Virus record (IMG/VR): IMGVR_UViG_2585427766_000010
Span: 1 to 11,370 of that record
From: a virus
Lineage: Duplodnaviria; Heunggongvirae; Uroviricota; Caudoviricetes
DNA: 11,370 nucleotides
Strand: one strand, 5' to 3'
A program made the translations under genes and the position numbers. Below are positions 1 to 11,370 of this stretch, in pieces (the first letter of the stretch is position 1; every line of letters begins with the position of its first letter). The notes beneath the pieces were generated by a model. The model did not search any database, had not been told where the DNA came from, and worked only from the letters and a program-made list of their open reading frames with translations.

Positions 1-46
1 CCGCCCACGCAATATTGCCTTCAATTATATTGTGAGAACCGCATAA
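1..46 (+). CDS. Tail fiber protein, extreme C-terminal end only (5' part lies upstream of the window); cassette Sv_c
   Basis: Frame starting at base 2 reads RPRNIAFNYIVRTA then TAA at 44-46, matching the last 14 residues of the two minus-strand fiber cassettes (TRPRNIAFNYIVRAA, TRPRNVAFNYIVRAA). The stop overlaps the tfa ATG at 46 (TAATG). Confidence 0.6.
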   Translation, partial: RPRNIAFNYIVRTA

Positions 47-657
47 TGAATAACGCGATATTAAATGATGACCTTATTGCCGTACAGGCAGGAAACATCG
101 TCGTTTATAACTATGATGGTGAGACACGGGAATATATTTCCGAATCAACTGAATATCTTGCTGTGGGTGTCGGTATTCCGGCAAATTCCTGTTTAGATGC
201 CCCGGGCGCACATAAAGCGGGCTATGCTATCCGCCGTTCGGAGAATTTAAGTTCATGGGAGTATGCGCCAGACCATCGTGGTGAAACCGTCTATAGCACT
301 GACACGGGAAACACCGAAGAAATCACGGCGCTGGGTGACTACCCGAAAACTACAACCACTATCGCCCCGTTAACACCATACGATAAATGGGATGGTGAAA
401 AATGGGTGACAGATACTGAGGCACAACATCGTGCCGCAGTAGAAGCGGCAGAAACCAAGCGCCAGTCACTGGCTGATGCGGCAATGGCTTCCATAAGTCT
501 GATTCAGTTGAAGTTGCAGGCCGGGCGGAAGTTGACGCAGGCAGAAACCACCCGGCTTAATGCCGTGCTGGATTATATAGACGCGCTGAACGCAATGGAT
601 ATAAACATGGTACCAGATATCAACTTGCCGGAAATACCACTGGCAGCAGCCAGTTGA
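46..657 (+). CDS. Tail fiber assembly protein (Tfa; lambda Tfa / Mu U-like chaperone)
   Basis: 203-aa ORF with ATG at 46 and TGA at 655-657. Motifs typical of the Tfa family as I recall them: PDHRGETVY, KWDGEKWVTDTEAQ, and a C-terminal ...MVPDINLPEIP segment. It follows a fiber C-terminus on the same strand with start/stop overlap. Confidence 0.88.
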   Translation: MNNAILNDDLIAVQAGNIVVYNYDGETREYISESTEYLAVGVGIPANSCLDAPGAHKAGYAIRRSENLSSWEYAPDHRGETVYSTDTGNTEEITALGDYPKTTTTIAPLTPYDKWDGEKWVTDTEAQHRAAVEAAETKRQSLADAAMASISLIQLKLQAGRKLTQAETTRLNAVLDYIDALNAMDINMVPDINLPEIPLAAAS

Positions 658-663
658 ATATAA

Positions 664-1140
664 CTAAGCCGCCCTCACGATATAGTTAAATGCAATATTG
701 CGGGGGCGGGTTTCACTACCACCTGTGTTACCAATACTTCCTCGTGAATGAAGCGTTGGTGATGGAATCAAACTCCCTCCTGTATTTGTGGCATCAAGCC
801 CCCTGCCTTGTGTATATGTTTTTTTGAAAATCGTAGCCAACTCCCATTCATCTTTTGTGTCATATCCATCGTTAGCTACAACAATATGGCGGTGTTTTTC
901 CAACATCCCGTTTTGAATGCTCAATAAAGCGCGTGCCGCATCAATTCCTCGCCCATCATCCCAGCCACGGATAAATTCACCGCGTAAATCCGGTAATTTA
1001 TTGGTGGGGTAGGCCTTTGCCAGATTGGGGTACATTTCAGAAGAAAATGCTGCACCGTTACATTTCAGCCAGCCCGTTGGTGGTGTGGCTGAGGGCCATG
1101 GAACAGGCACACCAACGGGCAGTGCAGAGCCTTCCCCCAA
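664..1140 (-). CDS. Alternative tail-fiber C-terminal cassette (Sv_b): promoterless, start-less copy of the fiber distal domain
   Basis: The open frame runs from a stop at 1162-1164 down to TAG at 664-666. The track start at 1140 is a TTG with no Shine-Dalgarno upstream. The first ~65 aa (GLGEGSALPVGVPVPWPSATPPTGWLKCNGAAFSSEM...LPDLRGEFIRGWDDGRG) are near-identical to residues ~219-285 of the upstream fiber; the middle diverges; the last 15 aa are conserved again. Confidence 0.6.
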   Translation of the reverse strand: MGEGSALPVGVPVPWPSATPPTGWLKCNGAAFSSEMYPNLAKAYPTNKLPDLRGEFIRGWDDGRGIDAARALLSIQNGMLEKHRHIVVANDGYDTKDEWELATIFKKTYTQGRGLDATNTGGSLIPSPTLHSRGSIGNTGGSETRPRNIAFNYIVRAA

Positions 1141-1145
1141 ACCAA
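926..1145 (-). repeat. Direct repeat copy A (~220 bp), 5' homology block of cassette Sv_b
   Basis: Aligned by eye against 1440-1659 at a constant 514-bp offset; roughly 88-90% identical, differences mostly transitions. Homology stops abruptly at both ends. Confidence 0.8.
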
Positions 1146-1157
1146 CGTTTTCATGCG
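1132..1157. other. Candidate serine-invertase crossover site (site 2), 12-2-12 layout TTCCCCCAAACC-AA-CGTTTTCATGCG
   Basis: Sits exactly at the upstream edge of the cassette homology and spans the fiber stop codon. The left half-site matches the TTCnnnnAAACC pattern of hix/gix/cix sites as I remember them; the right half-site is degenerate. Confidence 0.4.
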
Positions 1158-2305
1158 GCTCTTACGATGTAATTAAATGCAACGTTGCGAGGGCGAGTTT
1201 CTGTACCTACATTTCCACTAATTTCACCAAACCGTCTTACATTACGAGAGCTAATGGCTCGTAGTGAGGAAGGCACCTTTAAACCGGGTTCGTCTGTTTT
1301 AACTATTCCCCCGTCCCCGTATGTAGCCAGTATTCCAGGGTTTACTCCTTCCCGTGTGCTTCCCGTGGCAAGTCCATCCCCGGTCCATAATTCCATATAG
1401 TGTGCATGATCCAAAATTGTGTGTGGCTGCCAATTAAGCAAAGCGCGGCCAGCATCCACCCCGCGCCCATCATCCCAGCCGCGAATAAATTCTCCCCGTA
1501 AATCCGGTAATTTATTGGCGGGGTAGGCCTTTGCCAGATTGGGGGACATTTCAGAAGAAAATGCTGCACCGTTACATTTCAGCCACCCCGTTGGCGGCGT
1601 GGCTGAAGGCCATGGAACGGGCACACCAACGGGCAGCGCCGAGCCTTCCCCTAAACCAAGGTAATTGAGGACTTCTTTTATACTGCCCATAGCGATAATA
1701 GCGCGACCAATAGCTGTAAGGGTTGTCAGTGCTGCGCGGTCTGCTCCGGTAAAATAAGGCAACCGATCTGCTGCAGTGGCAAGTCCTGCCAGAGCAGTGA
1801 GCGTGGCATCTGCCGGTTGTTTTCCGTTTGCCAGATCGTATGCAGCCTTGACCGCTTTCGGTGTGGCGGCCAGTATTTCAGACGTGCTGTTGATGTCACT
1901 GCTCAATTGTACGGTGCCTTTTGCCGTCAGCGAGGCAGCAGGCACTCCCGTTATCTGACTCCACGGGTGAGTATGGCTGACGGGGGCCTTGCCGGCAGCC
2001 AGGTCATATGCAGCCTTGACGGCCTTTGGTGTGGCGGCCAGCGTTTCAGAGGTGCTGTTGGTGGCACTGCTCAGTTGGGTGAACCCCTTAGCTGTCAGTG
2101 TCGCGTCCGGGTGGTTACGGGAACGTACGTGTTCAGCCAGTGACTGTGCGGCTTCCTCCGTTTTTTTCTTCAGCCATTTCGTCCTGTTTGCCAGTTGCCG
2201 GGGGGCTCGATTTGATATCCCGTCTGCACCACCCAGAACCGGATCTGATGTCTCCAGTTGATAGATATTTTCTTCCCACTTTTCTGTTTCATTCAGGTTT
2301 CCCAT
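1151..2305 (-). CDS. Tail fiber protein (Sc constant part plus Sv_a distal cassette)
   Basis: Long ORF with stop TGA at 1151-1153. Preferred start is the ATG at 2305-2303, which has GGGAG 9 nt upstream; the track start (TTG at 2311) is too close to that GGGAG to be likely. Contains two copies of the phage fiber repeat (LTAKG..QLSS...STSE.LAATPKAVKAAYDLA.GK) and a collar-like domain (WLKCNGAAF...LPDLRGEFIRGWDDGRG). Confidence 0.88.
   Translation of the reverse strand: MGNLNETEKWEENIYQLETSDPVLGGADGISNRAPRQLANRTKWLKKKTEEAAQSLAEHVRSRNHPDATLTAKGFTQLSSATNSTSETLAATPKAVKAAYDLAAGKAPVSHTHPWSQITGVPAASLTAKGTVQLSSDINSTSEILAATPKAVKAAYDLANGKQPADATLTALAGLATAADRLPYFTGADRAALTTLTAIGRAIIAMGSIKEVLNYLGLGEGSALPVGVPVPWPSATPPTGWLKCNGAAFSSEMSPNLAKAYPANKLPDLRGEFIRGWDDGRGVDAGRALLNWQPHTILDHAHYMELWTGDGLATGSTREGVNPGILATYGDGGIVKTDEPGLKVPSSLRAISSRNVRRFGEISGNVGTETRPRNVAFNYIVRAA
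1440..1659 (-). repeat. Direct repeat copy B (~220 bp), 5' homology block of cassette Sv_a inside the fiber gene
   Basis: Partner of 926-1145; same orientation, 514 bp apart. Confidence 0.8.
1646..1671. other. Candidate serine-invertase crossover site (site 1), TTCCCCTAAACC-AA-GGTAATTGAGGA, at the Sc/Sv_a junction
   Basis: Same left half-site and AA core as site 2; the right half (GGTAATTGAGGA) partly matches the GGTTTnnGAnAA pattern. Lies in the same codon phase as site 2 relative to the cassette frames (core in codon positions 2-3 of ...NYL / ...ENV before GLGEGS). Confidence 0.45.
1820..2098 (-). repeat. Tandem in-frame repeat inside the fiber shaft (two units, period 168 bp / 56 aa)
   Basis: tgcagccttgac recurs at 1841 and 2009; the encoded units LTAKGFTQLSSATNSTSETLAATPKAVKAAYDLAAGK and LTAKGTVQLSSDINSTSEILAATPKAVKAAYDLANGK match the common phage tail fiber repeat. 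Confidence 0.75.
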
Positions 2306-2307
2306 AA

Positions 2308-2886
2308 TCAACTGCTCCCGTGGTTATAACTGCCATCATGGATGGCGGTATTGTTATAGCGAATGGCCACAGACTGATACTCCAGGCTGGCCAGATGGCA
2401 GCGGGCCGGTGCAAATGCAGCCAGCGTCTGACGCAGCATCGCGGCCTGATCGTTAGTAATGGGCTGTTTCAGAATAACGCGATAAACTGCCCAGGCGGCT
2501 GCATCTCCATGAACAAACAGTCCGTTATAGCTGCGATTGCCGTCGTAACTGAGACGACCTGTGCCTTCAATCAGATCCACTTCACCAAAGCCAAAACGGC
2601 GGATAACTTCCCGGATTGACCACGGCGTCCCTTTATACCGGTGCAGTTCGATGGCTGCTTTTATAAGCATGCGGCGAACATCGTCCGATTCCGCCAGCTC
2701 CCAGCCATCGCCAGACAGTGAGAACTGCTCGCCCAGCCATGGCAGCGCGGAACTGTCGACGATATCGACGAGAAAGACCATCAGTACGCTCAGGTCGATG
2801 TTATCCAGCCGTCCTGCCAGTCTTCCCAGCGTCCTGAGACTGATATCACCCTCAAGCGGTGGCGGGAGTTGTAATGGCTCAGTCAT
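2308..2886 (-). CDS. Baseplate/tail protein, P2 gpI-like (Mu gp48-like)
   Basis: 192-aa ORF, ATG at 2886-2884 with GGAG upstream. Its stop overlaps the fiber start region and its start overlaps the gpJ 3' end by 8 bp. Size and position (between the J-like gene and the fiber) fit gpI. Confidence 0.8.
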   Translation of the reverse strand: MTEPLQLPPPLEGDISLRTLGRLAGRLDNIDLSVLMVFLVDIVDSSALPWLGEQFSLSGDGWELAESDDVRRMLIKAAIELHRYKGTPWSIREVIRRFGFGEVDLIEGTGRLSYDGNRSYNGLFVHGDAAAWAVYRVILKQPITNDQAAMLRQTLAAFAPARCHLASLEYQSVAIRYNNTAIHDGSYNHGSS

Positions 2887-4971: not shown

Positions 4972-6122
4972 TTTTTCTTCTCCTTAATCACCGTCGATGT
5001 ACTGCCATCCGGGTGATAAACCGTGAGTTTCTGAGTTTTTTGTTTTTTCCCTCTTGTGACTGGCCCCCGTGCCACTTCCAGCTCTGTGGTGTAGCCGCTG
5101 TTACGGTCAAACGCATGGCGGGCAGTGGTTATGAGCCATGGCCCGGATAACTGCCCAAAACCCACCAGTTCAATTTTGTTGCCTGCTGTCAGTTGAGGTG
5201 TTCCCGTCAGCGTCAGGGAGCCGTTCTGCTGGTATTCGTTATGTCTGGCCAGTGCTGAATCCGCTTTAATCCGGGCACTGTCCGGGTCGCTGACGCGGCT
5301 GTTAACTTTAAGTGAGTCAGCGCTGGTAACCTTACCACCTTTGAGCTTTTTGTCGCTTTCACGGGTACCACCATCAGCTTCGTAGACGATCAGTTTTTTA
5401 CTGCTGCTTTTCTGGTGTTTTACCTTTGCAGATTTATAGACCCGGTTGATGGTGTCACGCAGGGAAAAGCGGGCCACATCCTGCGGTTTTAACTGCCTGA
5501 CCGGCTCCTGACTGCGCAGTGTGGCCAGATGAGAAAAAATCAGCTGGTCACTGACCACTTTCACTGCATAACCATACTCGCTGGCCAGCCGGCGCAGAAA
5601 ACCCACGTCGGTTTCAGCATACTGGGTCACCCGGTCGATTCTGATGGACTCAATGCTGCCCACCAGTTTCAGTCGGTGCTTTCTGGCAATCCGCCCCGCA
5701 ACAGCTGCCAGCGTGGTGTTCTCAAAACCACGACTGGTTTTAGTCCGCAGGGCACTGTTAACCGAGGTGGCCACCCCACGGATAGAAACAACGGAAGCGG
5801 GCGAACTCACTTCGATCTCGTCTATAGAGAACGTACCGCAGGACAGCAGCTTCTCGCCCTGATAGCCCATTTTCAGCGTCAGCGTGTCACCCTTGCCCGG
5901 ATACCATTTATCCAGCCAGCGGCCATCGGTGTCGTCCAGCTCCACCTCAATGGTATCGGACTCATTTTTGATGTTATCGCTCCAGGTCACACGGGTGACA
6001 TAAGGCGCGATATCAGAGGTGATGTTTTTCTGCAGATACCACAAAGTGAACACCGGTGTCAGCACATCGCTGACGCCGGTTAACGCTGATGTGACTTGCG
6101 CAGTGCTGTTTATCTCAGCCAT
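4968..6122 (-). CDS. Late control gene D-like tail protein (baseplate hub; P2 gpD / Mu gp44 family)
   Basis: 384-aa ORF, ATG at 6122-6120. Size and position immediately upstream of gpV are characteristic; Lys-rich C-terminus. Confidence 0.82.
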   Translation of the reverse strand: MAEINSTAQVTSALTGVSDVLTPVFTLWYLQKNITSDIAPYVTRVTWSDNIKNESDTIEVELDDTDGRWLDKWYPGKGDTLTLKMGYQGEKLLSCGTFSIDEIEVSSPASVVSIRGVATSVNSALRTKTSRGFENTTLAAVAGRIARKHRLKLVGSIESIRIDRVTQYAETDVGFLRRLASEYGYAVKVVSDQLIFSHLATLRSQEPVRQLKPQDVARFSLRDTINRVYKSAKVKHQKSSSKKLIVYEADGGTRESDKKLKGGKVTSADSLKVNSRVSDPDSARIKADSALARHNEYQQNGSLTLTGTPQLTAGNKIELVGFGQLSGPWLITTARHAFDRNSGYTTELEVARGPVTRGKKQKTQKLTVYHPDGSTSTVIKEKKK

Positions 6123-6322: not shown

Positions 6323-7206
6323 CACACACTCCTCGTCAGTATTCTGGCGGCCATTGCACTTAATCCCGGAGACATGCGGTTGAATGCTGTGCCGGCGGCG
6401 TTAAGCTGCCCGGAAACGGTATCCAGAGCATCTGCAATATTTCTTTTGTCCACACCACTCAGCGCAGACTGTGCCTGCTGTACATACGTGGCTGCTTCGC
6501 TGGCTGTTCTGGCCAGACTGATGGCATCGGGCATGGATTCAGAGAGTGCGTTAAACGCCGGAACACTTTTCCCCAGAGCCCCGGAGATATTACCCAGTCC
6601 GCTCATCAGCCCCGGCACACGGGTCAGTGCGACAACGGGGTTATCCTTCATTTTCTGTGTCACCCGAACGGCGCTGATAGTGGTCTGGAGTACAGACTGC
6701 GCCTGTTTCGCATAGTTGACGCCGTTGCGGATGAACTGCGCCACCCCTGAAGGTGAAGGTATGGCACCGGAGACCGCCCCGACACCCGGGAGCTTCGTGC
6801 GTATTGCCGGTGGTTGCAGAGGATTTTTCGGGTCACCGGTGTATTCCCGGAGAGACACGGTGGCACTGACAGCCAGCACGTTGCCGGTACTGTCAGTCTG
6901 CTCGCTGGTTGCAGTCACATCGGTAATCACGAACCAGCCGCGATAGTCACCGTTGCCGAAGACCAGCGCCAGTGCCTGATGGGCTTTCATGGCTGTTCGC
7001 AGTCTCGCCAGCTCCACATCGGGTACACAATAATGCTGATGGAAAACCAGAGTTATCTGGATTTCGTCCAGCCTGTCGCCGACGAACTGCAGGCCAGGCT
7101 TACCCCCGATGCGGGCATGCTCCGCATAATCGACGCCGAACGTGGCCTCGAAGCCGTCCCAGTAGGTAATCAGCTCAAACTCAATATCACCCAGTACGGC
7201 AAACAT
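6322..7206 (-). CDS. Tail protein with P2 gpU-like N-terminal domain and an Ala/Ser-rich C-terminal extension
   Basis: 294-aa ORF, ATG at 7206-7204, abutting the tape measure stop. The N-terminal ~130 aa (MFAVLGDIEFELITYWDG...GLQFVGDRLDEIQITLVFHQ) resemble gpU; the C-terminal ~160 aa are low-complexity. Confidence 0.65.
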   Translation of the reverse strand: MFAVLGDIEFELITYWDGFEATFGVDYAEHARIGGKPGLQFVGDRLDEIQITLVFHQHYCVPDVELARLRTAMKAHQALALVFGNGDYRGWFVITDVTATSEQTDSTGNVLAVSATVSLREYTGDPKNPLQPPAIRTKLPGVGAVSGAIPSPSGVAQFIRNGVNYAKQAQSVLQTTISAVRVTQKMKDNPVVALTRVPGLMSGLGNISGALGKSVPAFNALSESMPDAISLARTASEAATYVQQAQSALSGVDKRNIADALDTVSGQLNAAGTAFNRMSPGLSAMAARILTRSV

Positions 7207-9106
7207 CAGCGGTACTCCTTACGTTGTTTCTGAGCCAGCAGACGCTCCAGCATTTTTTCCAGCTCATGCAGACTCATATTCAGGGCACCAGTCAGTCCTG
7301 CAGGCGCTGTGGTTTCCCTGCCATTGAGGAAAAACTGAGGATTAAAGCTGACCTGGATACCACCAGACGTTCCACCGCCGGTTGCAGCTGCACCACGGCC
7401 TGAATATCCGGCAGCCAGGATTTCAGGCGAGGGGATACGGGGAACATCCGGTGTCATCTCATTTGCCAGACGTTGCCCTGGTAAAATCGATGCCCGGGTG
7501 GAGAGCGGAATAGCGGGCATGGAAGACAAACTATTGATTACGGCTCCGATCGCATTTTTAGCAGACGACATAAACCCATTGATATCGGGCAACGGCATAC
7601 TGAAGCGAACACCTGAAGTGTTATCCCGTATTTCTGGCCCCTGGATGCTCACGGGCATTCTGGGGAGCAGTTCACTGGCCATTCGCTGCCCGGCCAGAGC
7701 TGCAAGCGGAGTGGTCCGCTGCAGGCCAATGGCGGCCCCCTGCGCGATATTGTCACCAAAGCCCATAAACACGCGGCTCGGCGAATGAATGCCCAGCTTT
7801 TCGCTGAACCAGCCACTGATGCTGTCACCCATTCCGGTTACACTGGATTTGAGCGACTCCCATTTGTTTTTGATACCGTTAATCAGACCATCGACAAGAT
7901 GGCCACCGAAGTCGGTAAACTTTGCCGGCAGATCAACACCAAGATATTTCAGCGCAGCTGCAAAGGCTTTATAGAGCAGGCCTGCCGGCGACCAGTTAAT
8001 CAGTAACTTACCAATTCCCACAATGCCGCCGTTAAAGGCTTCCTGAATGTCTGCCCAGCGCTGTTTAAACCAGCCACTGACTGCCCCCCAGTTGCGGTAG
8101 ATAAGGTAAGCTGCTGCCGCGACAGCGGTGATAACGAGACCGATGGGATTCATCATCAGCGCACGTCCAATCCAGAGAACAGCACGTCCGGCGAGCATAA
8201 TTCCGCGAACCAGCCCCTCGGAGAGCACGCCACTCAGTGTTCTGGCTCCTCTGGCGACGGCGCTAAATCCGGTCACCAGCCAGCGGAGCTTACCGCCTTG
8301 CCCCAGTGCGAGCGACAGACGAAGCCAGTTGGCCCGAAGTAAAACAGCATTTTTCCAGACACTTACAAAGGGGGAAATAAGGAGATTCAGCCCCAGTTTG
8401 AGACCAACAGTCGCTATCTTAATCGCAAGGAGCGCACTGATGAGCTTAAAAGCCCCACTGACAAATTGCGGGTGAGTCGCTACCCAGTGTTTTGCCCCCT
8501 GAATGAGTGGAAGCAGTTCCTGAGTCAAAGAAATAAAAGATGGAGCTAATTGATCGCCCAGCGTAATTGCCAGATCGCGACTGCTGACCATAAGTGTTTT
8601 AGTGGCTTCAAGGGGAGATTTCAGCCGCTGATCATAAGCACTGGCAAGCAAATCGTTATCCGCAGCCCTGAGAGCACCGGCACGGATCTCTCGATATCTG
8701 TCCATGTTGGCCAGCATCGGGCGGATAAATGCCATGACCTGCATATCCGCGAACATATCGCCCAGACCAAAGTTTTTCGCCAGAGCCTGAAGTGCCTCAT
8801 CTCTTGCCGTATCATTCTTTATTTTCATGGCTGATTTGAAGCCGGCCAGCGCTTCGGGGCTTTTGGCATTGAGGTAACGTTCTATAACACTCAACATCCC
8901 TTCAATCGGAGAGATCCCCGCAGCTTTATAACTCGCAATAGATCCCTGCAAATCAATACCCAGATCAGCAAACTGTTTCTGAGTATCGCGGGCAAAAATT
9001 TTGGTAAGAAAGTTTTTAAAATTATTGGCTGCTTCGTCGGTGGAACCTGCACCGATTTTTGCTATCTGGAGACTGGCCCCGATTTCAGCAACAGCCTCTT
9101 TTCCAC
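7206..9106 (-). CDS. Tail tape measure protein, 5'-interrupted by the IS66-family insertion (probable pseudogene/fragment)
   Basis: Stop TGA at 7208-7206. The frame is open upstream well past the track start (TTG at 8951) to about 9106, where the sequence becomes the IS end (in-frame stop at 9155-9153 inside the IS). Contains the GIHSPSRVF-type motif and long hydrophobic helices typical of tape measure proteins. Confidence 0.75.
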
Positions 9107-9192
9107 TGTAAGCGTAAAGCCAATGCCGTCTGTAACACCTGCTCCTTGCAGACTAAATTAGAGCTCCTTCTAAATTAGACGGAGTTCTATTG

Positions 9193-9627
9193 ATGGATAA
9201 ACCTACAGACTGGCGCTCCGGAACCCGCCGGATATTTTCTAATGAATTTAAACTTCATATGGTTGAACTGGCTTCGAAACCAAATGCCAATGTTGCACAA
9301 CTGGCCCGGGAACATGGCGTTGATAACAACCTGATTTTTAAATGGCTACGCCTCTGGCAAAGAGAAGGACGTATTTCTCGTAGAATGCCTCCAACTATTG
9401 TAGGCCCTACAGTATCACAATCTTTTCCGGCCTCTCCGACTCTGGTTCCAGTGGAACTTATCGACACCCCGCGCTGTGCTACAGATGCTCCTGCTCCGGA
9501 GGCATTATCAGTTGCTTGTGCAGCTTCCTGCCATGTGGAATTCCATTACGGTAAAATGATGCTGGAAAATCCTTCACCAGAGCTGCTCACGGTGTTGATC
9601 CGTGAGCTGACCGGGAGGGGACGATGA
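9193..9627 (+). CDS. tnpA: IS66-family accessory protein TnpA (orf1)
   Basis: ATG at 9193 with GGAG 8 nt upstream (the track start at 9190 is TTG); about 144 aa. Stop overlaps the tnpB start (ATGA at 9624-9627). Confidence 0.8.
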   Translation: MDKPTDWRSGTRRIFSNEFKLHMVELASKPNANVAQLAREHGVDNNLIFKWLRLWQREGRISRRMPPTIVGPTVSQSFPASPTLVPVELIDTPRCATDAPAPEALSVACAASCHVEFHYGKMMLENPSPELLTVLIRELTGRGR

Positions 9628-9974
9628 TTTCACTCCCATCAGGTACCCGTATCTGGCTCGTTGCCGGCGTTACTGATATGCGTAAATCCTTCAACGGTCT
9701 GGGGGAGCAGATACAGCATGTGCTGGATGATAACCCCTTCTCCGGTCACCTGTTTATCTTCCGTGGCCGACGGGGAGACACGATTAAAATCCTGTGGGCT
9801 GATGCTGATGGTCTGTGCCTGTTCACCAAACGCCTTGAGGAAGGTCAGTTTATCTGGCCTGCGGTGCGTGACGGTAAGATATCCATTACCCGCTCGCAAC
9901 TGGCAATGCTCCTCGATAAGCTGGACTGGCGTCAGCCAAAAACATCCCGCCTTAACGCACTGACAATGTTGTAA
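9624..9974 (+). CDS. tnpB: IS66-family accessory protein TnpB (orf2)
   Basis: 116 aa; MISLPSGTRIWLVAGVTDMRKSFNGL...IKILWADADGLCLF... is the characteristic IS66 Orf2 sequence as I recall it. Confidence 0.85.
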   Translation: MISLPSGTRIWLVAGVTDMRKSFNGLGEQIQHVLDDNPFSGHLFIFRGRRGDTIKILWADADGLCLFTKRLEEGQFIWPAVRDGKISITRSQLAMLLDKLDWRQPKTSRLNALTML

Positions 9975-10004: not shown

Positions 10005-11370
10005 ATGAGTCAGAAATACCTCATTCGCATCGCTGAGCTGGAAAGGCTGCTCTCTGAGCAGGCTGAAGCCCTCCGTCAGAAAGACCAGCAACTGAGTCTG
10101 GTTGAAGAGACGGAGGCCTTCCTGCGCTCTGCACTGGCACGTGCCGAAGAAAAGATCGAAGAAGATGAACGGGAAATAGAGCATCTGCGGGCTCAGATAG
10201 AAAAACTGCGCCGGATGCTGTTCGGAACCCGTTCTGAAAAACTGCGTCGTGAGGTTGAACAGGCTGAAGCCCTGCTGAAACAACGCGAGCAGGAAAGCGA
10301 TCGTTACAGTGGGCGTGAGGATGACCCGCTGGTTCCCCGCCAGTTGCGACAGTCGCGCCATCGTCGTCCGTTACCGGCACATCTCCCCCGTGAAATATAC
10401 CGCCTGGAGCCTGAAGAAAGCTGTTGCCCGGAGTGTGGCGGTGAGCTGGATTATCTGGGGGAAGTCAGCGCAGAACAACTGGAACTGGTGAGCAGCGCCC
10501 TGAAAGTGATCCGCACAGAACGGGTAAAAAAAGCCTGTACAAAATGTGACTGCATCGTTGAAGCACCGGCACCATCCCGTCCGATAGAGCGTGGTATCGC
10601 GGGCCCGGGGTTACTTGCCCGCGTGTTAACGGGAAAATACTGCGAACACCTGCCACTGTATCGTCAGAGTGAAATCTTTGCCCGCCAGGGTGTCGAACTG
10701 AGCCGTGCCTTACTCTCCAACTGGGTTGATGCGTGCTGCCAGTTAATGACGCCGCTGAATGATGCCCTGTACAGTTATGTGATGAACACCCGCAAGGTTC
10801 ACACTGATGACACACCAGTAAAAGTACTGGCACCGGGCAGGAAGAAGGCGAAAACAGGATATATCTGGACGTATGTCCGGGATGACCGAAATGCCGGTTC
10901 GCCAGAACCTCCGGCGGTCTGGTTCGCCTACTCACCGGACCATCAGGGTAAACATCCGGAGCAACACCTTCGTCCCTTCCGGGGTATCCTGCAGGCAGAT
11001 GCGTTCGCAGGTTACGATCGGCTGTTCAGTGCCGAACGTGAAGGCGGCGCGTTGACGGAAGCAGGATGCTGGGCTCATGCGCGGCGCAAAATCCACGATG
11101 TATATATCAGTACCAAAAGCGCGACGGCGGAAGAAGCACTGAAACTAATCGGCGAACTGTACGCCATTGAGCACGAAATACGCGGGTTGCCGGTGTCTGA
11201 ACGCCTGGCGGTCAGGCAAATGCAGAGTAAACCGCTACTGACTTCCCTGTATAAGCTGATGCAGGAGAAAGAACACACGTTATCGAAAAAATGCCGTCTG
11301 AGAGATGCGTTCCGGTATATCAGGAAGCACTGGGTTGCGTTGTGCAACTTCTGTGATGACGGTCTGGCGG
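10005..11370 (+). CDS. tnpC: IS66-family transposase TnpC (orf3), 3'-partial (runs off the window)
   Basis: ATG at 10005, open to the end of the window (over 455 codons), so absent from the stop-delimited ORF track. Has an N-terminal coiled-coil/leucine-zipper-like region and a CPECGG...CTKCDC zinc-ribbon motif, as in IS66 transposases. Confidence 0.8.
   Translation, partial: MSQKYLIRIAELERLLSEQAEALRQKDQQLSLVEETEAFLRSALARAEEKIEEDEREIEHLRAQIEKLRRMLFGTRSEKLRREVEQAEALLKQREQESDRYSGREDDPLVPRQLRQSRHRRPLPAHLPREIYRLEPEESCCPECGGELDYLGEVSAEQLELVSSALKVIRTERVKKACTKCDCIVEAPAPSRPIERGIAGPGLLARVLTGKYCEHLPLYRQSEIFARQGVELSRALLSNWVDACCQLMTPLNDALYSYVMNTRKVHTDDTPVKVLAPGRKKAKTGYIWTYVRDDRNAGSPEPPAVWFAYSPDHQGKHPEQHLRPFRGILQADAFAGYDRLFSAEREGGALTEAGCWAHARRKIHDVYISTKSATAEEALKLIGELYAIEHEIRGLPVSERLAVRQMQSKPLLTSLYKLMQEKEHTLSKKCRLRDAFRYIRKHWVALCNFCDDGLA

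Follow-up and report, generated by a model that had tools for sequence, protein, structure and literature searches.

The Din-family serine invertases Min of p15B and Pin of e14 act on fiber genes in which a constant 5' part is combined with alternative 3' cassettes at 26-bp sites, several cassettes being accompanied by one tfa and an adjacent invertase. Details of Min, in the multiple-inversion region of p15B, were reportedly described by Sandmeier et al. in 1990-1992. The G segment of Mu (S/U and S'/U') also has an invertible 3' fiber part and a Caudo_TAP chaperone (Mu fiber-Tfa complex, PDB 5YVQ).

T4 gp37, which lies outside any inversion system, ends in a tip (PDB 2XGF) with a discontinuous collar domain, D10. 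According to one source D10 comprises residues 811-881 and 1010-1026, with D11 (882-1009) as an insertion inside it (PMC6957217), and in another the collar limits are given as 811-860 and 1016-1026 (PMC12724248). In the solved structures the terminal segment returns from the receptor-binding head and completes the collar (PMC6957217, PMC12724248). In gp37 the insertion takes the form of a long needle of six strands that carries seven HxH motifs, and the partner of gp37 is gp38. The receptor-binding domain of T4 gp12 (PDB 1OCY, 1H6W, 5LYE) belongs to a baseplate short fiber, not to an invertible cassette; gp12 has no adjacent Tfa and is folded by gp57A without gp38 or Tfa (PMC3004832).

Layout of the fiber locus and its crossover sites

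The fiber locus lies within a window of 11,370 nt (the whole stretch of DNA analyzed). The constant part of the fiber gene (Sc; 1658-2311, minus strand) contains two Phage_fiber_2 repeats (Pfam E 6.5e-38; direct repeat D2), which match Mu S. On the same strand lies the expressed cassette 1, consisting of a collar N-part (1484-1627), a variable head with an HAH motif (1199-1483) and a C-terminal tail (1151-1198). The silent cassette 2, also on the minus strand, has the same order: a collar N-part (970-1113), a variable head inserted into the collar and containing HRH (712-969), and a tail (664-711). The gene for the tail fiber assembly protein (Tfa, 203 aa) is found at 46-657 on the plus strand, and its ATG (46-48) overlaps the TAA stop (44-46) of cassette 3, the end of which occupies 1-46, plus strand. 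The rest of cassette 3 lies left of the window; the full cassette is visible in the related loci L001 and L002 at 5588-6046. The element itself is a chromosomal P2/Mu-like tail module, interrupted by an IS66 element.

Pfam Collar (PF07484) matched the N-part of both window cassettes, with E 5.2e-12 for the fiber (residues 229-276) and E 8e-15 for cassette 2. The collar N-parts carry a PWP...LPDLRGEFIRGW segment and are 89-94% identical in DNA between cassettes; the cassette 1 region forms a 223-nt direct repeat that is 90% identical to 926-1148. The heads differ strongly. That of cassette 2 is saturated at both synonymous and non-synonymous sites relative to the other cassettes. Putative metal-binding HxH motifs are HAH, HRH and HYH in cassettes 1-3, with none in cassette 4.

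Two 26-bp sites with a central TT dinucleotide were identified in the window, both in the same orientation. One is a Pin/Min-type crossover site at the 5' end of cassette 2 (1132-1157, minus strand; CGCATGAAAACG TT GGTTTGGGGGAA), of which the outer half overlaps just the last Ala codon and stop of cassette 1. The other (1646-1671, minus strand; TCCTCAATTACC TT GGTTTAGGGGAA) marks the junction between constant and variable parts. Both match, at the site core, the Pin repeat of the e14 P segment, TTGGTTTGGGAGAAGG (PMC12529663), and the same 26-bp sites are present in the related loci L001, L002 and L005. In these three loci the homologous cassettes have on their left a gene annotated "recombinase family protein". 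Among the related loci, sites occur on both strands, and in L002 the constant part is joined directly to cassette 2. L005, a P1/p15B-like plasmid locus, is arranged likewise and is 87% identical in DNA. Unlike the Min and Pin systems, the window holds two same-orientation sites and no invertase gene, their partners lying to its left. Judged by its arrangement, the locus is a predicted Min/Pin-like multi-inversion fiber system. An inverted repeat of 45 nt between tails was also considered as a switch of tfa orientation and discarded: its arms reach only 80% complementarity, exact identity extends over about 11 nt at most, and no invertase-site pattern was seen.

Protein-level selection on the cassette tails

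The three cassette ends in the window encode the peptide (T)RPRN(I/V)AFNYIVR(A/T)A (n = 3 places). Cassettes 2 and 1 end in TRPRNIAFNYIVRAA and TRPRNVAFNYIVRAA, respectively. The cassette 3 end, translated from position 2 to 46, provides 14 tail codons, RPRNIAFNYIVRTA, plus stop; its first codon is cut at the window edge, so that the T before R is unseen and 14 residues are readable. A degenerate back-translation of RPRN(I/V)AFNYIVR matched just these three places and gave 0 matches in 200 shuffles. Each tail is in the true frame, as the end of an ORF with a Pfam Collar N-part, and homologues end likewise. A preliminary description had reported one shared tail on divergent codons, with I/V and A/T variants. 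Translation and codon counts agree on both points, and the peptides are near-identical, not strictly identical.

The counts of substitutions locate the constraint at the level of protein. Across 14 shared codons, each pair of tails differed at 9 of 42 nucleotides, with 7-8 synonymous versus 1-2 non-synonymous differences, so that the divergence is mostly synonymous in the true frame, as had been supposed. Nei-Gojobori estimates over 15 codons, in a set that took in cassettes 3 and 4 as they stand complete in a related locus, gave a saturated pS of 0.70-0.97 and a pN of 0.03-0.12. Saturation at synonymous sites, with the amino acids retained, means that the peptide and not the DNA is under selection, and the earlier proposal of selection on the peptide rather than a recombination site holds; the crossover sites lie elsewhere.

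Conservation of the tail as DNA, whether as a recombination site, as part of an invertase site or enhancer, or as a homology patch for head swaps by homologous recombination or gene conversion, has some features in its favor. Between the tails there is an inverted repeat of 45 nt on either side of tfa (1-45/665-709, 80% complementary), as well as a direct repeat (668-720/1155-1207, 79% identical), and the crossover site of the following cassette extends with its outer half over the last Ala codon and stop. However, synonymous sites in the tail are as saturated as in the unrelated cassette middle, and the longest exact run common to the tails is about 11 nt (by eye), a length of identity too short for homologous recombination. 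The conserved 26-bp sites with the central TT, which match the e14 Pin repeat, are found instead at the 5' ends of the cassettes, and the terminal residues are also retained in cassettes 2 and 3, which no site follows. We therefore regard a DNA-level function as very improbable; the serine invertase would act at the 26-bp sites, and the tail DNA would play no role in inversion.

Recent cassette duplication, by which the tails would be identical merely through copying, might be suspected from the 89-94% DNA identity of the collar N-parts. The synonymous saturation of tail and middle contradicts this, in line with the preliminary description, and this tail is also found behind at least 22 distinct head clusters at other loci and in over 100 protein clusters. 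This explanation appears extremely improbable.

The tail as probable closing segment of a discontinuous collar

The tail aligned with T4 gp37 residues 1016-1026, NIAFNYIVRLA, which are almost identical to it (C-terminus of the tip chain in 2xgf, ...TENTVKNIAFNYIVRLA), and with the C-terminus of gp12 (NISLNYIIKVKE); gp12 ends in IGNETRPWNISLNYIIKVK(E). The collar N-part also aligned with the gp37 tip (E 3.8e-14), and fold similarity to solved collar domains is present in the cassette. As in gp37, the head is inserted into the collar and HxH motifs occur, whereas the insertions in the window cassettes are short, some 60-90 residues, and none has more than one HxH. The tail is thus homologous to the segment that completes the collar in gp37 and gp12, and therefore each cassette consists of a collar N-part, an inserted head and a closing strand. 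We consider it highly probable that the tail, at the C-terminus, closes a discontinuous collar (D10) domain like those in the receptor-binding tips of gp37 and gp12.

An AlphaFold2 model of cassette 2 is consistent with this assignment: residues 151-156 form a beta strand, and the block 151-158 has a mean pLDDT of 91. The model is monomeric, and confidence in its middle is low. The head has pLDDT below 50, as expected of an intertwined trimeric head.

An invertible cassette would then be one self-contained tip module of three parts. The chain would begin with the conserved collar N-part (PVGVPVPWP...LPDLRGEFIRGWDDGRG), continue into a variable receptor-binding head structurally inserted into the collar, and return to the collar to end in (E)TRPRN(I/V)AFNYIVRAA. 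In the trimer the returning strand would, presumably exactly as in gp37, pack against the collar N-part, which is just as conserved. Such a packing need would place the tail residues under strong purifying selection while their codons drift to saturation. The earlier suggestion of a shared trimerization or anchoring element came close to this closure of a trimeric collar (D10), comparable to gp37 1010/1016-1026 (PMC6957217, PMC12724248). This explains why the alternative cassettes all end alike: each variable head interrupts a conserved collar, which the chain has to complete on its way back.

The same ending is found far beyond this locus. In 150 database representatives (clusters at most 50% identical), the strict motif was the C-terminal end in 106 and a looser motif in about 118; those without a terminal motif mostly look like fragments. 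Database homologues do, then, end with the motif, which was found in fibers of P2-like, lambdoid, T4-like, cyanophage, Bordetella and Ralstonia phages. The segment RPRNIAFNYIVRAA is almost invariant over more than 100 clusters. In multi-module proteins (P0169, P0261, P0134) and the phiTE short fiber 9cuy, of which only residues 3-92 are modelled, leaving the collar region without structure, the motif is internal and closes each collar-head module. Conservation of the tail is stricter than one edge strand might need, a possible sign that it has some further function, for instance in contacting the chaperone or in registering the trimer.

The collar domain is well known and widespread, in thousands of phage fibers including T4 gp37 and gp12, and the tail peptide, though real and under protein-level selection, is ordinary; the finding adds little new biology. 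A full-text literature search for the peptide AFNYIVR matched no paper. The closing strand goes unlabelled in annotation because Pfam Collar models the N-part only, and recognizing it has practical value there. For host-range engineering, swap points should retain both the collar N-part and the tail.

Tfa and the shared collar scaffold

The C-domain of the window Tfa is Caudo_TAP (Pfam E 8.9e-31), and its N-domain (residues 20-93) is homologous to T4 gp38, with 36% identity to gp38 residues 3-73 (74 residues, E 3e-13). No similarity was found between this N-domain and Mu U, and the window Tfa had no match among PDB sequences. The Mu system differs in that S and S' each have their own Tfa, with an unrelated N-domain, and in having neither collar nor tail motif.

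The preliminary description had suggested that the tail could be the docking element for the single Tfa. A dedicated C-terminal docking tag of this kind is not supported. T4 gp12 and its homologues, which end in ...ETRPWNISLNYIIKVK(E) and ...ETRMKNLAVNYVIRVR, have the tail without a Tfa, and the Tfa-dependent Mu S/S' and pro483 gp31 lack the motif. The motif is general to fibers of many phage lineages, which by the terms of the preliminary description itself refutes the tag, and gp12, folded by gp57A, is the valid counter-example; gp37 was dropped as a case of a different chaperone, since gp38 shares its N-domain with the window Tfa.

A broader form of the idea, that the tail, alone or together with the collar N-part, is a docking surface for a single gp38-like Tfa and that one chaperone folds every cassette, is compatible with closure of the collar and not exclusive of it. 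The window Tfa resembles the chaperone of gp37, which bears the same tail. Among loci sampled with the window N-domain as query (relatives at 64-100% identity), 78 IMG/VR loci were judgeable, and in 76 of them a Tfa of the gp38-like class begins within a few nucleotides of where a tail-ended cassette stops. In 27% of the pairs of N-domains that share at least 90% identity, the heads before them share less than 35%. A single N-domain cluster is found behind six head clusters, and 2-7 tail-ended cassettes accompanied by one Tfa occur in 13 of 46 loci. The non-collar alternative tip pro483 gp31 has its own, different Tfa. Near-identical N-domains after unrelated heads, together with tight linkage and several cassettes per Tfa, therefore suggest that the chaperone may recognize the shared scaffold, tail included.

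Several observations weigh against docking. Short fibers of the gp12 type, with collar and tail, fold by gp57A without gp38 or Tfa (PMC3004832), and the motif can be internal, as in the multi-module proteins above. In the complexes from Mu and Pam3, binding by the N-domain of Tfa is to the distal part of the fiber rather than to a proximal collar (PMC9608196). The link between Tfa and fiber tip is a genomic association that could be mere co-inheritance of a fiber-tfa module; binding and folding by the window Tfa are putative, and the contact could equally be the tail, the collar N-part or the HxH region. We therefore judge docking at the tail or collar rather unlikely.

Tentatively, and still against our expectation, the collar scaffold of Min-type loci (N-part plus the invariant RPRNIAFNYIVRAA strand) might be a universal adaptor for one gp38-like Tfa, by which any inserted head would be foldable. 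This would differ from Mu and Pam3, where the N-domain of Tfa is variable and holds its own fiber at the distal part. If confirmed, the use of one gp38-like Tfa with many unrelated heads on one scaffold could guide the design of multi-specificity phages. T4 gp38 itself gave a weak Caudo_TAP match (E 0.076).

Peptide-level selection on the cassette tails

Translation confirmed the positions of the three cassette ends assigned in the preliminary description. The tail, a C-terminal peptide of the form (T)RPRN(I/V)AFNYIVR(A/T)A, closes cassette 3 at 2..46 on the plus strand (RPRNIAFNYIVRTA*, with the first codon cut at the window edge and the leading T not visible), the silent cassette 2 at 664..711 on the minus strand (TRPRNIAFNYIVRAA) and the expressed cassette 1 at 1151..1198 on the minus strand (TRPRNVAFNYIVRAA). 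A degenerate back-translation of RPRN(I/V)AFNYIVR matched the window at these three tails only, with no matches in 200 shuffles. Across the 14 shared codons, tail pairs had 7-8 synonymous and 1-2 non-synonymous codon differences. Nei-Gojobori counts per segment, including the full cassettes 3 and 4 of one related E. coli locus, gave a saturated pS (0.70-0.97) and a pN of 0.03-0.12 for the 15 tail codons; in the variable middle both values were saturated, and in the N-terminal segment of the collar domain (collar N-part) pS was 0.18-0.31 and pN 0.007-0.034. The tail match is the outcome of peptide-level selection and of neither recent copying nor DNA-level conservation, and the saturated pS against low pN bears out the earlier proposal of selection on the peptide as opposed to recent copying or a recombination site.

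Recent duplication of the tails was excluded by synonymous saturation, and also by the many unrelated heads (variable insertions) that the tail closes. A DNA-level role was excluded by the same saturation, by exact runs of at most ~11 nt, and by the location of the true crossover sites elsewhere. A 26-bp site, e.g. CGCATGAAAACG TT GGTTTGGGGGAA, opens every cassette, and its core is matched by the e14 Pin repeat TTGGTTTGGGAGAAGG (PMC12529663). The window has two such sites: 1646-1671, where the constant part meets the variable part, and 1132-1157. The tail thus falls outside the crossover sites, apart from the final Ala codon and stop of cassette 1, which run into the outer half of the site that follows.

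Homology of the tail to the collar closing strand

When the fibre C-terminal module was searched against solved structures, it aligned with 2xgf, the tip of T4 gp37, whose last residues are ...TENTVKNIAFNYIVRLA, and with the phiTE short fibre, which carries ENRPKNIAVMYIIK at residues 290-303 of 554. The C-terminus of T4 gp12 is IGNETRPWNISLNYIIKVK(E), and that of one T4-like gp12 homologue is GGNETRMKNLAVNYVIRVR. According to three papers that describe the gp37 structure, the D10 ("collar") domain consists of residues 811-881 and 1010-1026, its fold is that of the gp12 collar, and the elongated D11 (882-1009) "is an insertion into domain D10" (PMC6957217); elsewhere the collar limits are 811-860 plus 1016-1026 (PMC12724248), and the chain turns back at the head and re-enters the collar (PMC12609058). 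NIAFNYIVRLA is exactly gp37 residues 1016-1026, within the collar, which by homology identifies the tail as the strand that closes a collar domain built from two separate stretches of the chain. A cassette on this basis is a complete module of collar N-part, inserted variable head and collar-closing strand. The tail is a known collar closing strand with an already established structural role; the peptide itself was quoted in no paper found by literature search, and the Pfam Collar model covers the N-part only.

An exhaustive HMMER search recovered 13,659 relatives (E <= 0.001). Among the best 150 representatives of these at pairwise identity <= 50%, the strict motif formed the C-terminal end in 106 and a looser form in 118, with the remainder looking mostly fragment-like or like longer multi-domain proteins. 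In the long proteins P0169 (977 aa), P0261, P0134, P0132 and P0152, the collar-head module is repeated two or three times; these may be fibres that bear multiple receptor-binding heads one after another. The motif stands at module ends in P0169, P0261 and P0134, and in the first two it is followed by a conserved linker, e.g. AWNAPVNQGNIDVAAL. Within a phage collection the module was found in P2-like, lambdoid, T4-like, cyanophage, Bordetella, Ralstonia and Burkholderia phages, with tails ETRPRNVAFNYIVRAA, VRPRNIAFNFLVRAK, ETRPRNIALNYIIKF, ETRPRNVAMNYIIKFA, ETRPRNVALLACIKY and EVRVRSLAMLAMIRAY.

Tail-fibre assembly chaperones and collar-type tips

The suggestion that the tail is a specific docking tag for the tail-fibre assembly chaperone (Tfa) was contradicted by four cases. 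Fibres of the gp12 type carry the tail yet fold with gp57A alone (PMC3004832); Mu S and S' are served by Caudo_TAP chaperones but have no collar and no tail; the expressed tip gp31 of P2-like phage pro483 is without the tail, and the Caudo_TAP gene after it, tfa32, encodes a different N-domain; and the motif also occurs mid-protein. T4 gp37 was ruled out as a further counter-example by gp38-Tfa N-domain homology (36% identity to the gp38 N-terminus, E 3e-13), and comparison of the window's Tfa N-domain with that of Mu U found them unrelated. In T4 gp38 (L012 2479-3030) the clearly homologous part comprises the N-terminal 73 residues and is not modelled by Pfam; gp38 scores under the Pfam threshold for Caudo_TAP (E 0.076).

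A survey covered 80 viral loci with Tfa N-domains 64-100% identical to that of the window, of which 78 could be judged; in 76 of these, the stop codon of a tail-ended cassette lay no more than a few nt from the tfa start. The heads of these cassettes formed 22 clusters at 50% identity, and were < 35% identical in 27% of pairs with Tfa N-domains >= 90% identical. This association fits a broadened docking idea, in which the chaperone recognises something common to collar-type tips and not individual heads, but co-inheritance could also explain it, it does not point to the tail in particular, and in Mu and Pam3 complexes the distal fibre is gripped by the Tfa N-domain (PMC9608196); we consider the broadened idea unlikely. 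Unrelated heads preceded nearly identical Tfa N-domains in the IMG/VR loci (L013-L092) and two related E. coli loci (L001, L002). Arrangements were counted in the 46 loci having full flanks: 16 had one tail-ended cassette and one Tfa, 16 had one such cassette and two Tfa (pro483 type; two different genes, the additional tip being non-collar), 13 had 2-7 such cassettes and one common Tfa, and one, a P1/p15B-like plasmid locus (L005; tfa annotated as frameshifted), had four with no Tfa-like ORF detected.

Layout and state of the Min/Pin-like locus

In its layout and crossover sites the locus resembles Min and Pin, a known kind of multiple-inversion fibre system. Upstream of the fibre gene (1151-2311, minus strand; Phage_fiber_2 repeats and a Pfam Collar domain) are baseplate genes of P2 I, J, W, V, D and U kinds, and downstream is the promoter-less second cassette (664-1140, minus strand) with its own Collar domain. 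The stop of the third cassette overlaps the start of the Caudo_TAP gene tfa (46-657, plus strand). Related E. coli loci extend leftward with one or two further plus-strand cassettes and a serine recombinase, a layout shared by the P1/p15B-like plasmid. In this isomer tfa is translationally coupled (ATAATG, 44-48) to silent cassette 3 and convergent with the expressed fibre gene (46-664; stop codons 6 nt apart), which is therefore without a co-oriented chaperone gene.

Collar N-parts (926-1148 versus 1440-1662, and the L001 cassettes) are 89-94% identical in DNA (dS 0.2-0.4), unlike the synonymously saturated heads and tails of the same cassettes, which suggests concerted evolution or gene conversion beside the crossover sites. 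A 110-nt direct repeat in the constant part (1821-1930 and 1989-2098, 78% identical) corresponds to the pair of Phage_fiber_2 repeats, for which Mu S residues 107-149 are a further match. In the related prophage L001 (E. coli O55:H7 CB9615, 7874-9229) the expressed fibre copy looks degraded, as it ends directly past the collar N-part (...DDGRGVDMGEHY*) and an additional tail-ended remnant lies near ~7665. An IS66-family element (plus strand; HTH transposase, 9190-9627; TnpB_IS66, 9624-9974; DDE_Tnp_IS66, from 9975 past the window end at 11370) lies directly upstream of a 581-aa tape-measure ORF (7206-8951, minus strand), the homologue of which in L002 is ~2.7 kb long; the tape-measure gene has probably been cut short by the insertion, and the prophage tail module inactivated with it.
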